From assembly GCA_041641295.1 (NCBI GenBank), contig JBEPYO010000001.1, positions 1,248,001-1,312,000 of the forward strand: a stretch of DNA of 64,000 nucleotides, read 5' to 3'. The stretch's first letter is position 1. Each line of letters begins with the position of its first letter. The position numbers were made by a program, and so were the translations under genes. This document shows positions 34,659 to 38,846 of this stretch, one piece after another. The notes under the pieces are model-generated. The model saw only the letters and a list, made by a program, of their open reading frames with translations, did not search any database and was not told the origin of the DNA. This DNA comes from Nitrososphaerota archaeon. Its GTDB lineage: Archaea > Thermoproteota > Nitrososphaeria_A > Caldarchaeales > Calditenuaceae.

Positions 34659-35585
34659 ATGGGTGTTCTGTCTTACAGCGTAGAGATCGTCGAGCATCTT
34701 GACGCGCGGAGGAGAGAGCTTGAGTCTTGGATTGAGAGGCGGCTAAGCCAGAGACCTGATAGGCAGATTTTTGAGAGGGCCGTTTACGGTGGGAAGAGGC
34801 TGCGGCCTGTCTTCCTCTTACTGGTTTTTGAAGCTCTGGCTGGGAAGGACCGGGAGTCCGCCCTCGATGTGGCGTTTGCCCTAGAGCTGGCGCATGCAGC
34901 AAGCCTAGTTCACGACGACATTATTGACTGGGACGATCTTAGGCGGGGGCGGCCCGCGCTATGGAGGCAGGTGGGGATCAGCAGGGCCGTAGTGGAGGGG
35001 CACAGAATTATCAACCTCGCATTCAGGACGGTTCTCGAGAAGGGGATAGAGATAGCTCGGATCTTTCTCGAGGCGTGGGATAGGGCCTCGCTCGGAGTGC
35101 TGGAGGAGATCCTCTCGACGACCCCGCCCTCTAAGCTGCTCTACCTCCGGATCATCGAGAACAAGACCGCTTCTCTCTTCGCGGCCGCCGCCGAGTCCGC
35201 AGCCATACTTGCGGGGGCTCCCGAACATGTCCGCATGCTCGCTAAGAACTATGGGAGGTGCGTCGGTATTGTCTACCAGCTAGGCGATGATTACGGTGAG
35301 ATGCTCGCGGGTAGAGGTGTTGTGAGGCTGGTGCGAAACCTAGGGAGGATTGAGGAGCTGATAAGGCAGGGATACTTTGCGTTAAAGAGTGGGCGTCTCC
35401 GCGAGCTGATAAATGTGTGGAGGGCTCTTCGTGGATTCCAGGGATATGTGCTGGAGATCTTGGAGGAGACGCTGAGGGAGATAGATAGTCTTGTGGCTGT
35501 GATGCCTGTGGAGGCTCATTACAAGAAGATTTTGAGAGAGTTTCCCAGATACTGTTTTCTCCAGATGGTCAGGGCGAACAGGTAG
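34659..35585 (+). CDS. trans-Polyprenyl diphosphate synthase family protein
   Basis: GGKRLRP, FARM HDDIIDWDDLRRG, KTASLF and a SARM-like YQLGDDYGE. Confidence 0.88.
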   Translation: MGVLSYSVEIVEHLDARRRELESWIERRLSQRPDRQIFERAVYGGKRLRPVFLLLVFEALAGKDRESALDVAFALELAHAASLVHDDIIDWDDLRRGRPALWRQVGISRAVVEGHRIINLAFRTVLEKGIEIARIFLEAWDRASLGVLEEILSTTPPSKLLYLRIIENKTASLFAAAAESAAILAGAPEHVRMLAKNYGRCVGIVYQLGDDYGEMLAGRGVVRLVRNLGRIEELIRQGYFALKSGRLRELINVWRALRGFQGYVLEILEETLREIDSLVAVMPVEAHYKKILREFPRYCFLQMVRANR

Positions 35586-35832: not shown

Positions 35833-36225
35833 CTACTGTTTGCGGACGAGTTTTTCAATCCTCATTAAGGGGTAGTTCAGCTCATCAATCCAGCTGAGCC
35901 TCCCCCAGACCCTGCTCTGACCATACCTGACCACAACGCTCACCTCGAGGTTCCTAATGTCTATGCGACCGTACCTGTAGGCTGTCTTCCCAATACGCAG
36001 GCCCTTAACCCTCAACTCTACCCTCTCCCTGAATGGCTGGGCGGCGAGGCCCTCGCTCAATTGGGCCAGCAGCCTCTTAATCGCTGCAGGTCTTCTGGGT
36101 AGTGGGAGGCCTAAGAGGTAGTGATAAGCTGTAGCCAGCGCGATTCCCGCCTCGAAAGCCGCCCTCTCAGAGTCGGTGAGGCCCTCGTAGAAATACTTCC
36201 TTCCCGGATCTCTCACTCTCCCCAA
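35833..36225 (-). CDS. mptD: Archaeal dihydroneopterin aldolase (MptD/DUF372)
   Basis: TDSERAAFEAGIAL..YH...G.P, QPF and ELNYPLM motifs. Confidence 0.85.
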   Translation of the reverse strand: MGRVRDPGRKYFYEGLTDSERAAFEAGIALATAYHYLLGLPLPRRPAAIKRLLAQLSEGLAAQPFRERVELRVKGLRIGKTAYRYGRIDIRNLEVSVVVRYGQSRVWGRLSWIDELNYPLMRIEKLVRKQ

Positions 36226-36305: not shown

Positions 36306-37301
36306 GTGGGGGTTGACTATCATGGATTCGTGGCTAGGGGCGCGGTCGCTAGGGCCTATACCATGCAGGCCCTCGTGAAGTATCACGGCCTGAGGGACTG
36401 GAGCCTGAGGATTCCGTATCATGACAGCATATCGGTGAACACAGATGTCGCATACACAACTGCGCGTGTTACTTTCGGCTCGTTTGAGAGTGATAAGGTT
36501 TTGGCTGGTGGTGTAGAGCTTGTGGGGCGGCCTCGGGAGCGTGTTATAGCTGTGATAGATAGGGTGAGGGCGCTGGCGGGTATCGATGATAAGTGCGTAG
36601 TGGAGACTGAGAATCACCCGAGGATAAGGGCCAAGGGCATGGGCTTCTCCTCATCCGCAGGCGCCGCAATAGCCGCGGCCGCCTACAAGGCCGCCTCACT
36701 CGACAAAAAGTATGGATGGGATTTAAGACTCATATCGCGGATCGCTAGGCTGCTGGCAGGCTCTGCATGCCGCTCGGTTGTGGGTGCGTACGCTAAGTGG
36801 CTGGCAGGAACAGGCGACGAGGATAGCTATGCCATAAGAATAGGCGACGCCTCCGACCTAGATATCAGATATGTTATTGTCCCTCTCTGGCTTGATGTCT
36901 CAACCGAGACGGCTCATAGAGAGGCTGAGACCTCACCATTCCTCTGGGCTAGGGTTGAGTCGGCCAATAGGAGGTGCATAGAGCTTGAGAAGGCTATTAA
37001 GGACGGCGACTTCAAGCGATTCGGCGAGCTTGTAGAGAAGGACTCCCTCGAGCTCCACGCTGTAACAATGACCGGCGCCCAAGGGACGATACTCATGACA
37101 CCAGAAGCCCTAATGGTGATAGAGATTGTCAAGAGGCTGAGAGGGAAAGGAGTAGCGGCCTACTTCTCAATGCAGACAGGTCCAACCGTCTACGTAAACA
37201 CCCTCCCAGAGGATGCTGAGATAGTCGCGGAGGAGATTCGGGCCGGAGGGTTCGACGTACTGGTGTCGGGTATAGGAGGGGAGGTGGAGGTCCTTGGCTG
37301 A
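36306..37301 (+). CDS. GHMP-family (di)phosphomevalonate decarboxylase-like protein, haloarchaeal PMD-type signature
   Basis: QALVKYHGLRD..LRIPYHDSISV, GFSSSAG, GSACRS and YFSMQTGPTVYVNT motifs. Confidence 0.85.
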   Translation: MGVDYHGFVARGAVARAYTMQALVKYHGLRDWSLRIPYHDSISVNTDVAYTTARVTFGSFESDKVLAGGVELVGRPRERVIAVIDRVRALAGIDDKCVVETENHPRIRAKGMGFSSSAGAAIAAAAYKAASLDKKYGWDLRLISRIARLLAGSACRSVVGAYAKWLAGTGDEDSYAIRIGDASDLDIRYVIVPLWLDVSTETAHREAETSPFLWARVESANRRCIELEKAIKDGDFKRFGELVEKDSLELHAVTMTGAQGTILMTPEALMVIEIVKRLRGKGVAAYFSMQTGPTVYVNTLPEDAEIVAEEIRAGGFDVLVSGIGGEVEVLG

Positions 37302-37343: not shown

Positions 37344-37508
37344 ATGGGTGAGGTAACGGTAAAGGAGGAGGATGTACCCTTCTTCGCAGAAGTGACCGCA
37401 GGCGGACGTATCACCATCCCGGAGGAGATTAGGAAGATCTTCGACATTAAGGATGGGGACTACCTGCTCTGCAGGATCAAGATCGTGAAGAGGCGTAGCC
37501 GGGACTAG
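37344..37508 (+). CDS. AbrB/MazE/SpoVT-family DNA-binding protein, 54 aa (absent from the ORF track)
   Basis: MGEVTVKEEDVPFFAEVTAGGRITIPEEIRKIFDIKDGDYLLCRIKIVKRRSRD; ATTAAAAA TATA-like site upstream. Confidence 0.85.
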   Translation: MGEVTVKEEDVPFFAEVTAGGRITIPEEIRKIFDIKDGDYLLCRIKIVKRRSRD

Positions 37509-37792
37509 CGAGCTGGACATCTGCACGGTATTTGCCCACAGCGCGGACAGCCTGCACCATATCTTGAGATGAACTCCTTCTGAATGTCAATCCCCAAAAC
37601 ATTACATGTGCTGAGCATCCATGCCAAGAGGTCGGCGAACTCTGGCCCAATGTTTTTAGAGTCTTTAATGTAGGCGTCAGCCACCTCTCCAGCCTCCGAG
37701 AGCATCCAGAGTAGCGTCCTCTCAGCACCCCGCGCAGCGTCGCGCTCGCCGTATATCCTCGCCATCAACCTCTGGCATTCACTAAGCTCCAA
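37505..37792 (-). CDS. MazG-like nucleotide pyrophosphohydrolase
   Basis: YGERDAARG...SEAGEVADA...EFADLLAW and C-terminal CPRCG..PCRC; start set at TTG 37792 after GGAGGG. Confidence 0.85.
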   Translation of the reverse strand: MELSECQRLMARIYGERDAARGAERTLLWMLSEAGEVADAYIKDSKNIGPEFADLLAWMLSTCNVLGIDIQKEFISRYGAGCPRCGQIPCRCPAR

Positions 37793-37895
37793 GACCCTCC
37801 CTCCAGCAGTCTCAACAACAGATACAGCATAAAAATCCTTCCATCTGCCGGTGATGATGTAAACCTTTTCAATCCCAGCCGCCCTATAGGTTTGT

Positions 37896-38846
37896 ATGTC
37901 GTCTGGCAAGGTTTTGAGGAGTCTGCTAAGGGGTGATGGCCTAGTCTTCACCGCGGGAGTATACACGCCTGTTCAGGCAAGGCTGGCTGAGCTCGCGGGG
38001 CTCAGCTGCATCTATGTAAGCGGCTACACATGCTCGATAGGATATCTTCTCAAACCGGATATAGGGTTCCTCAACCTCACAGACATGGTGAACTTCGCCG
38101 GAATGATTACTAGGGCCGTCAGGAAGCCAGTGGTCTCCGATGCTGACGACGCCTATGGAAACGCTGTAACTGCCACAAGGACGGTTGAGGAGTTCGCGAG
38201 GATTGGGGTTGCCGGGATACACGTGGAGGATCAGAGGTTTCCCAAGAGGTGTGGGCACCTAGCCGGCAAACTAGTCCTCCCGTTTGATGAGGCGTTGTTG
38301 AAGATGAAGTCGATTCTGAGGGCGCGGGACGAGGTCGATAGGGACTTAGTCATAATAGCTAGGACCGATGTCTTGGGGTCTGAGGGTGGGACGGTTGAGG
38401 AGGCTGTCCGGAGGGGAGTTGCGTATGCCGATGCTGGGGCCGACGTGGTCTGGGCAGAGTTCAGATCACCCGACGACGAGGCGGCAAAAATATTTGCGGA
38501 GAGGGTCTTGGCCGAGCATCCGGGCCTCCCACTCCTCTTCAACTACTCCTCATCCTTCAGGTGGTCTAAGAGCAGGCTGAGGTTGCGTTTCAAGGATGTA
38601 GCTGATATGGGATATAAGCTCCTCTTGGTGAGCATGGGTGGACTACAGGCCGAGCTCGTCTCCGTATGGAGGTATTTGAAGGCGCTGGCTGAGGAGATGG
38701 AGCAGGCCCACTGGCGGCTCGAGTCCGAGCTCGAAGGTACCCCCTTCGAGAATCTCCACGAATTCGCAGGCATCAGCAGATACGCCGAGCTTGAGAGGCT
38801 CTTCCTACCTAGCAGCGAGCTCCGGGAGAGATACGGCACAGGTTAA
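37896..38846 (+). CDS. Isocitrate lyase/PEP mutase superfamily enzyme, probably a haloarchaeal-type isocitrate lyase
   Basis: YVSGY, DADDAYG, HVEDQ..PKRCGH, IIARTD, WAEF and FNYSSSFRW motifs. Confidence 0.8.
   Translation: MSSGKVLRSLLRGDGLVFTAGVYTPVQARLAELAGLSCIYVSGYTCSIGYLLKPDIGFLNLTDMVNFAGMITRAVRKPVVSDADDAYGNAVTATRTVEEFARIGVAGIHVEDQRFPKRCGHLAGKLVLPFDEALLKMKSILRARDEVDRDLVIIARTDVLGSEGGTVEEAVRRGVAYADAGADVVWAEFRSPDDEAAKIFAERVLAEHPGLPLLFNYSSSFRWSKSRLRLRFKDVADMGYKLLLVSMGGLQAELVSVWRYLKALAEEMEQAHWRLESELEGTPFENLHEFAGISRYAELERLFLPSSELRERYGTG

Follow-up and report, generated by a model that had tools for sequence, protein, structure and literature searches.

We have analysed a window of 64,000 nucleotides from a Nitrososphaerota archaeon of the family Calditenuaceae (assembly GCA_041641295.1, contig JBEPYO010000001.1, positions 1,248,001 to 1,312,000). 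On its forward strand, at 36306..37301, an uninterrupted open reading frame (ORF) of 331 codons encodes P0001, a protein of the family of diphosphomevalonate decarboxylases (DMD) and phosphomevalonate decarboxylases (PMD), in which a glutamine, Gln290, occupies the position of the catalytic aspartate. On balance, P0001 is probably the working phosphomevalonate decarboxylase in a lower mevalonate pathway of the haloarchaeal type, its non-canonical active site being made of Gln290 and Glu249. The pathway itself would then be ordinary, and the protein is of interest to pathway enzymologists.

Glutamine at the position of the catalytic aspartate

Residue numbers are those of the 331-aa form given by the longest ORF, as in the original prediction made on this DNA, which had claimed that Gln replaces the catalytic Asp at residue 290 while the N-terminal signature, the ATP loop and SACRS are intact. 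The translation contains all of these elements, namely QALVKYHGLRD, PYHDSISV, the KGMGFSSSAGA loop, SACRS and YFSMQTGPTVYVNT, and the codon of residue 290, read directly, is CAG (37173..37175, forward strand like all features of this gene), within the motif YFSMQTGP and just after an ATG at 37170-37172. When P0001 is aligned pairwise with solved chains by HMMER, Gln290 pairs with the Asp of FTMDAGPNV (2hk2 and 3qt5) and with that of YTLDAGPNV (6n0x), which bears out the claimed replacement. Counting along the printed alignment, the Asp of FTMDAGPNV should be Asp283 of the Staphylococcus epidermidis enzyme. The register of Gln290 against the catalytic Asp is unambiguous.

P0001 has both Pfam domains over the gathering score, PF22700 (MVD-like_N) at 130.4 bits (cut-off 27) and PF18376 (MDD_C) at 45.9 bits (cut-off 23.2). 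Its AlphaFold2 model, made from 110 aligned sequences, has a mean pLDDT of 96.9, and Foldseek matches it to the S. epidermidis and Enterococcus faecalis MDDs and the Anaerolinea PMD with TM values of 0.88–0.91 (0.90–0.91 for the S. epidermidis and Anaerolinea enzymes). By these domains and the full-length fold, the protein belongs to the GHMP-fold superfamily of DMD, PMD, bisphosphomevalonate decarboxylase (MBD) and mevalonate 3-kinase (M3K).

On the substrate side the residues are PMD-like. In the signature K25-Y-H-G-L29 (36378..36392), His27 stands for the Trp and Leu29 for the Lys of DMDs, and the Leu29 column, again by count along the printed alignment, would be that of Lys21 in the S. epidermidis enzyme; according to passages of PMC11052028, the DMD Lys is missing in PMD while the His is kept. 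T200/E201 and S153/R156 are likewise PMD-like, as is His204 (36915..36917), a position where His is universal in the Gln clade (100%) and nearly so among PMD-like sequences (97%), the DMD-like ones having Met (59%) or His (40%). To judge from the title of PDB entry 6n0z (N20K H194M), His204 may correspond to the His194 mutated there. The GHMP phosphate-binding (ATP) loop K110-A120 (KGMGFSSSAGA, 36633..36665) is intact, with G111, G113 and S115 invariant, and so is the Ser/Arg substrate-binding motif S153-A-C-R-S157 (36762..36776), with S153 invariant and R156 nearly so. Because of the PMD-like substrate residues together with the intact ATP loop and Ser/Arg motif, P0001 looks like an ATP-using enzyme acting on a monophosphate.

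Gln290 is the character of one archaeal clade

Gln at this site defines a clade, a point which the original prediction had left to be checked. We have taken the best 120 homologs from a collection of 5.8 billion proteins, with identity from 100% down to 46%, and found S-[MLF]-Q-T-G-P in 119 of them; the remaining one, P0113, is incomplete, its 197 aa not reaching as far as residue 290. In a library of 1.84 billion proteins clustered at 50% identity, where the best 150 of 2210 representative matches were taken, the Gln clade makes up two representatives and the next match is only 42% identical. Among the matches listed, the representatives of at least 280 aa (n = 134) show Asp in 121 cases, Asn in 4, Gln in 3 (the Gln clade) and other residues in 6, most of the last looking truncated or degenerate. 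The same is observed at the DNA level. Gln is encoded in all 16 Gln-type loci of a phylum sample of 201 genomes and in all 80 species-representative loci, by CAG in 83 and by CAA in 13, and 14 more distant loci encode Asp. This constancy of Gln, with both of its codons in use, points to strong purifying selection.

In the trees obtained with FastTree (144 rows) and IQ-TREE (76 rows, LG+C20+F+G4), from alignments in which the column of site 290 was kept, the Gln sequences form one monophyletic clade with a support of 99 in both, which implies a single Asp-to-Gln change; Asp codons (GAY) and Gln codons (CAR) differ at two positions. The clade is nested inside the KYHG group (as opposed to the KYWGK of DMDs), of which the other 29 sequences all have Asp at the site, and it is sister (SH-aLRT 93) to long-form, MBD-like proteins of 376–416 aa, which are of Asp type. 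Among 71 aligned members of the clade, 33 positions are invariant, those of the ATP loop and the substrate Ser/Arg included.

According to record titles, the clade comprises Calditenuaceae, Caldarchaeum, Pelearchaeum, Methanocellales, two metagenome-assembled genomes (MAGs) of Methanosarcinales, and Hydrothermarchaeota, and it also spans many MAGs of Nitrososphaerales/Thaumarchaeota that are not ammonia oxidisers. Some of the MAG records are titled marine, groundwater, bog or soil, and from these titles the organisms would be mesophiles.

In two further small clades, both PMD-like, the ATP loop and the KYHG motif are degenerate. The Asp is retained in one of them (P0160, P0218, P0219), which may represent an MBD-like form that does not depend on ATP; in the other (P0190, P0243) the Asp column is occupied by Glu or Gly.

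Flanking steps stay constant around an exchanged middle module

An inventory of the genome, which the original prediction had proposed, was made on the source assembly (1.56 Mb, 5 contigs, 93.8% complete). MVK (mevalonate kinase, 227 bits), IPK (isopentenyl phosphate kinase, 189.8 bits), IDI2 (394.8 bits) and HMG-CoA reductase (447.7 bits) are present over cut-off. The profile search of this genome found neither the large nor the small subunit of AcnX, nor UbiD, nor a phosphomevalonate kinase (PMK) over cut-off. Since TIGR01220 was over cut-off in no control genome either, the statement on PMK rests mainly on the GHMP inventory, in which P0001 is the only DMD homolog found and the remaining genes are a shikimate kinase, a homoserine-kinase-like and a galactokinase-like one. 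MVK and IPK with no PMK or alternative route is the context of a PMD, the PMK control being weak.

The galactokinase-like GHMP kinase is a protein of 403 aa (G000:C1:1414349-1415560; locus L005 1366-2577), which stays under every curated cut-off, with 165 bits vs 443 and 161.7 vs 226.65.

AcnX, described in passages of PMC10040528 as an oxygen-sensitive [4Fe-4S] dehydratase, is distributed in a way that complements the Gln-type gene. In our sample of the order (41 genomes, from families f1–f4 plus the source genome), MVK occurs in 41/41 genomes and IPK in 40/41, in all families. The Gln-type gene is present in 25 of the 41, that is, in the source genome and in all 12 genomes each of f1 and f2, while AcnX is present in 15, comprising 11 of the 12 in f3 and all 4 in f4. 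No genome has both (0/41), and only one, G278, has neither. The phylum sample shows the same pattern, with AcnX in 180 of its 201 genomes and in 0/16 of those with the Gln-type gene. As the flanking steps of MVK and IPK stay constant and the module between them is swapped, we infer that the net reaction of the Gln-type gene is from mevalonate 5-phosphate to isopentenyl phosphate, and this is the main reason for our reading. Such a clean swap within one order also provides a tractable case of exchange in the lower mevalonate pathway.

Beyond these samples, 64 of the 80 other Gln-type species genomes were examined for AcnX and UbiD. Neither was found in 38, UbiD only in 7 and AcnX only in 10, so that 55/64 are without at least one of the two. 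The ten genomes with AcnX and no UbiD are G205, G207, G211, G247, G254, G257, G258, G260, G261 and G262 (loci L106, L093, L113, L089, L099, L102, L103, L105, L107 and L108). Nine of them are MAGs titled Nitrososphaerales, Thaumarchaeota or archaeon, with AcnX at ~390–415 bits, and one of these nine is a complete chromosome of 1.8 Mb. The tenth is a MAG of Hydrothermarchaeota, in which AcnX is matched in part (251 bits). AcnX with no known downstream decarboxylase may be a relic in these genomes, or something unexplained.

UbiD does not mark the archaeal route reliably and was rejected for this purpose, as it is carried by 7 Gln-type genomes without AcnX, five of them with 3–7 copies. In the phylum sample it is found in 0/7 genomes of f1, 5/8 of f2, 9/9 of f3, 1/1 of f4 and 26/26 of f5. 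Six genomes of Caldarchaeum and related organisms (G227, G229, G233, G235, G239, G145) have 3–7 UbiD-family paralogs each and no AcnX; these paralogs probably act as decarboxylases outside the mevalonate pathway.

Glu249 co-varies with the loss of the aspartate

We have scanned 119 Gln-type, 29 other KYHG and 81 KYWG sequences for compensating changes, defined as residues fixed in at least 90% of the clade and present in at most 15% elsewhere. Only Met20, Glu249 and Gln290 pass. Met20 (ATG, 36363..36365) is invariant and specific to the clade, the other PMD-like sequences having Ile and the DMD-like ones Asn. Glu249 (GAG, 37050..37052), located in the helix 236-255, shows no variation within the Gln clade, and its presence co-varies with that of an amide in place of the Asp: it is found in 119/119 Gln-type sequences and 4/4 Asn-type representatives, and in 9/114 of the Asp type.

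The Asn-type sequences (FT[IVL]NTG) form a large DMD-like clade of Patescibacteria, including P0147, P0202, P0203, P0262 and the relatives P0313-P0541, with source names such as Roizman-, Davies-, Levy-, Woese- and Curtissbacteria. In a first search seeded with an Asn-type sequence, Asn was found in 120/120 of the matches listed and Glu249 in 116/120; a second one, seeded with P0203, gave Asn in 117/120 of the matches listed and Glu249 in 109/117, the relatives again being Patescibacteria. Like the Gln clade, these proteins have an amide for the catalytic Asp and a Glu at the 249 column. Unlike it, they carry the DMD-like KYWGK signature, belong to a bacterial lineage, and use Asn instead of Gln. 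Certain Asp-type relatives have Glu249 too, one (P0129) standing beside the Gln clade and four (P0148, P0181, P0215, P0217) beside the Asn sequences, which fits an order of events in which a permissive Glu came first and the Asp-to-amide change after.

The co-variation of Glu249 with the amide suggests a relocated carboxylate. We tentatively propose, as an explanation with a real though not better than even prospect, that decarboxylase chemistry has been kept while the catalytic carboxylate moved from 290 to Glu249, independently in the archaeal Gln-type and the Patescibacteria Asn-type proteins. Neither the Gln nor the Asn substitution was found described in the literature searched, subscription journals and preprint supplements lying outside that search. 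Genome surveys file proteins of the Gln clade as PMD or DMD, and their lineages as haloarchaea-type, and pass over the Asp (PMC11052028, PMC12979851). Two large natural clades without the Asp, each with a co-varying Glu, are ready-made experiments on the role of this carboxylate.

Proposed reaction and the evidence for and against it

If P0001 is indeed a phosphomevalonate decarboxylase, MVK would make mevalonate 5-phosphate, the Gln-type enzyme would phosphorylate the 3-hydroxyl with ATP and eliminate phosphate and CO2 to give isopentenyl phosphate, and IPK would convert the latter to isopentenyl diphosphate (IPP). In the active site, Gln290 could keep a hydrogen bond to the 3-OH or the 3-phosphate, with Glu249 supplying the negative charge, so that the catalytic carboxylate would in effect be relocated. 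In other members of the family the Asp normally orients the 3-OH and would promote elimination of the phosphate. Its role is debated, and Chen 2020 (PMC7414129) names general base, orientation of the 3-OH, charge repulsion and carbocation stabilisation; there the Asp is said to orient the 3-OH in a dissociative phosphoryl transfer, with stabilisation of the carbocation or repulsion of the 3-phosphate as further possible roles.

The original prediction had stated that substituting this Asp in the Sulfolobus DMD leaves kinase activity without decarboxylation. According to PMC9254496 (the 2022 structural paper, Aoki), in which the Asp is said to be conserved in all DMD, PMD and MBD enzymes, the statement holds for D281T and D281V, which stop at the 3-phospho intermediate, and leaves out D281N, which still decarboxylates. 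The activity of D281N means that an amide at the catalytic site is not by itself disqualifying.

On the other hand, several observations weigh against a phosphomevalonate decarboxylase with a relocated carboxylate. The catalytic Asp, whose loss in D281T/V stops the Sulfolobus enzyme at the 3-phospho intermediate, is absent here, and the same paper reports D309N and D309T of the Picrophilus MBD as inactive. No assay of any Gln-clade enzyme was found in the literature searched. In the curated models, P0001 scores 247.4 bits on its best NCBIfam match, NF040704 (PMD MvaD), far below the cut-off of 475 (other clade members: 240–248 bits), and 161.9 bits on TIGR01240 (DMD), below its cut-off of 171.35. 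Within the KYHG group, the Gln clade also falls outside the subclade formed by the haloarchaeal PMDs. Because the source genome is 93.8% complete, absences in it can only be read as "not found".

Further points of this kind concern Glu249 and the distribution. Glu249 is absent in 8/117 and 4/120 of the Asn-type sequences, and its closeness to Gln290 in space is presumed. A paired phylogenetic test of the 249/290 coupling gives p values of 0.125–0.5 with 4 pairs only, too few for significance. As the relatives of P0203 are Patescibacteria, the four origins counted by parsimony may be as few as two (archaeal Gln and Patescibacteria Asn), and thus the idea on Glu249 may rest on perhaps only two independent origins. 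In addition, the Gln-type gene occurs alongside both AcnX and UbiD in 9/64 of the other genomes, among them two Methanocellales MAGs, Methanosarcinales Met33H and Gagatemarchaeum; AcnX and UbiD are at most 2 kb apart on the same contig in 8 of the nine and on separate contigs in G255. Hence the Gln-type gene does not provide the sole route in every genome, and it may have another role where AcnX and UbiD are present. Such redundancy is not peculiar to the Gln type, since seven genomes of the phylum sample (G023, G039, G071, G073, G081, G103, G109; loci L034-L040) combine Asp-type PMD-like genes (37–40% identical to P0001) with strong matches to AcnX and UbiD. In each of these genomes, mevalonate 5-phosphate would seem to be turned into isopentenyl phosphate by two routes in parallel.

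Of the alternatives, the one that survives best takes P0001 as a kinase only, converting mevalonate 5-phosphate to mevalonate 3,5-bisphosphate and leaving elimination and decarboxylation to a non-homologous enzyme or to heat. We regard it as unlikely. The D281T/V substitutions turn the Sulfolobus DMD into a 3-kinase and a natural M3K lacks the Asp (passages of PMC9254496 and PMC7414129), the latter as the original prediction had stated for Thermoplasma; the ATP loop of P0001 is intact; and the sister clade of long-form proteins (SH-aLRT 93) scores partly on the bisphosphomevalonate decarboxylase model. However, a partner is hard to place, as the source genome has no second DMD homolog and no candidate neighbour is conserved over 80 related loci. 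To our knowledge, the only bisphosphomevalonate decarboxylases so far are DMD homologs. Heat-driven decay would be no general answer either, given the marine, groundwater, bog and soil members of the clade, which appear to be mesophiles. A carboxylate that is still required would account better for the invariance of Glu249, and D281N kept its decarboxylation (PMC9254496, same passages). The more specific version of this alternative, in which P0001 is only a mevalonate-5-phosphate 3-kinase and an undiscovered non-GHMP mevalonate 3,5-bisphosphate decarboxylase exists in Caldarchaeales and many non-ammonia-oxidising Nitrososphaeria, seems to us a shade less likely again. Either version, if true, would bring the known variants of the lower mevalonate pathway to five.

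More doubtful still is another role or substrate. P0001 would then be a DMD, an M3K or a bisphosphomevalonate decarboxylase that works without ATP, or it would have no part in IPP synthesis and exist beside the AcnX/UbiD route. Database sources do name members "diphosphomevalonate decarboxylase", the TIGR01240 score comes near its cut-off, and AcnX and UbiD coexist with the gene in the nine genomes mentioned. A DMD is opposed by the lack of a PMK over cut-off, by Leu29 for the Lys of KYWGK, by the PMD-typical His and by Gln290 for Asp. An M3K role is unlikely because P0001 reaches 41.8 bits on NF040848 against a cut-off of 440, the missing Asp being the only common trait, and because MVK is conserved (41/41 genomes of the order). 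As for an MBD, the score on NF040847 is 98.8 bits against a cut-off of 560, the Asp is absent, the ATP loop is intact, and no gene was found in the source genome able to supply mevalonate 3,5-bisphosphate. A role outside IPP synthesis would leave the 25 Gln-type genomes of the order without a route from mevalonate 5-phosphate to isopentenyl phosphate.

Finally, a codon error, which the original prediction had allowed for, or a decaying pseudoenzyme is hardly credible, as the missing Asp alone speaks for it and against it stand Gln in 96/96 independent genome loci through both synonymous codons, two bases away from Asp, the invariant positions of the clade, an intact reading frame and the confident structural model; the error reading is refuted by these sequences.

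Overall, a working phosphomevalonate decarboxylase with a remodelled site is the simplest reading. The original prediction, which had offered a kinase or a different mechanism and, from that, an undescribed route to IPP, has thus held as regards the non-canonical active site, while an undescribed route is not required by the evidence, because MVK and IPK are present, AcnX, UbiD, PMK and a second DMD homolog were not found in the source genome, and across the order AcnX and the Gln-type gene stand in for one another exactly. For isoprenoid engineering, the thermophiles of the clade could be a source of thermostable decarboxylases.

Start codon and neighbouring genes

The longest ORF opens at the GTG at 36306, and an alternative GTG at 36330 gives a product of 323 aa. 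The latter is probably the true start, since the closest homologs begin there, as MARGAV or MARRAV, and since five loci of the same genus have an in-frame stop within the match to the query; this match extends to query residues 1–6, so that the stops presumably fall inside the N-terminal extension.

A polyprenyl diphosphate synthase homolog (34659-35585, forward strand) lies 0.7 kb upstream of the decarboxylase gene. It is below every NCBIfam cut-off, with 114.6 bits at best on the model of an encapsulin-cargo polyprenyl transferase, and the linkage is found in 9/109 related loci, all of which belong to the genus of the source organism or bear the titles Calditenuaceae, Caldarchaeales or Thermoproteota. 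On either side of the decarboxylase gene, a protein of the archaeal dihydroneopterin aldolase family (35833-36225, reverse strand; PF04038, 79.9 bits) and a MazG-like protein (37505-37966, reverse strand; 25.8 bits) are adjacent in 12/109 and 17/109 loci, respectively, and recur only in related Caldarchaeales loci; an isocitrate-lyase-family neighbour recurs in 8/109, in close kin only. We have rejected the neighbourhood as a functional clue, as ORF clustering shows no neighbour common to more than 35 of the 80 related loci and those common to several (SDR, HEAT, chaperonin, ABC, MIP) are lineage-specific. The supplements of the Calditenuis paper list K17942 in a table with DESeq2-style columns (baseMean, p-value, log2 fold change) whose counted quantity is unstated, and no proteomic support was drawn from it.

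Comparison with known systems

The phosphomevalonate decarboxylase of Haloferax volcanii reportedly goes back to VanNice 2014. Haloarchaeal MvaD shares with P0001 the fold, KYHG, PYHDSIS, the T-E/D...H motif, the ATP loop and S..R, as well as the genomic context of MVK and IPK without PMK. The original prediction had named the N-terminal signature and YFSTDTG as features of this enzyme, and P0135, named MvaD of a haloarchaeon (603 bits on NF040704), reads KYHGM, PYHDSIS and YFSTDTGASVY. One difference lies in the active site: where a PMD has its catalytic Asp in [FY]S.DTG, the Gln clade has Gln290, with YFSMQTG for YFSTDTG, and Glu249 and Met20 are specific to this clade.

The PMD of Anaerolinea thermophila (6n0x, 6n0y, 6n0z) is also similar, with a TM of 0.90, 33% identity, a full-length alignment (E 2.3e-37), and His at the 204 position, if the equivalence to H194 drawn from the title of 6n0z is right. 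Unlike P0001, it keeps the Asp (YTLDAGPNV) and belongs to a bacterial DMD-like lineage, judging from the aligned N-terminal residues. The classical DMDs of S. epidermidis, E. faecalis and Sulfolobus solfataricus have the same fold and motif register, whereas they carry KYWGK (Trp and Lys) and the Asp, and need PMK upstream. The M3K of the Thermoplasma type resembles P0001 in the absence of the catalytic Asp, and the MBD of this type, unlike P0001, keeps and requires it (PMC9254496, in the passages cited above). The Thermoplasma-type route as a whole differs as well, for the genome of P0001 has MVK and no second DMD homolog was found in it.

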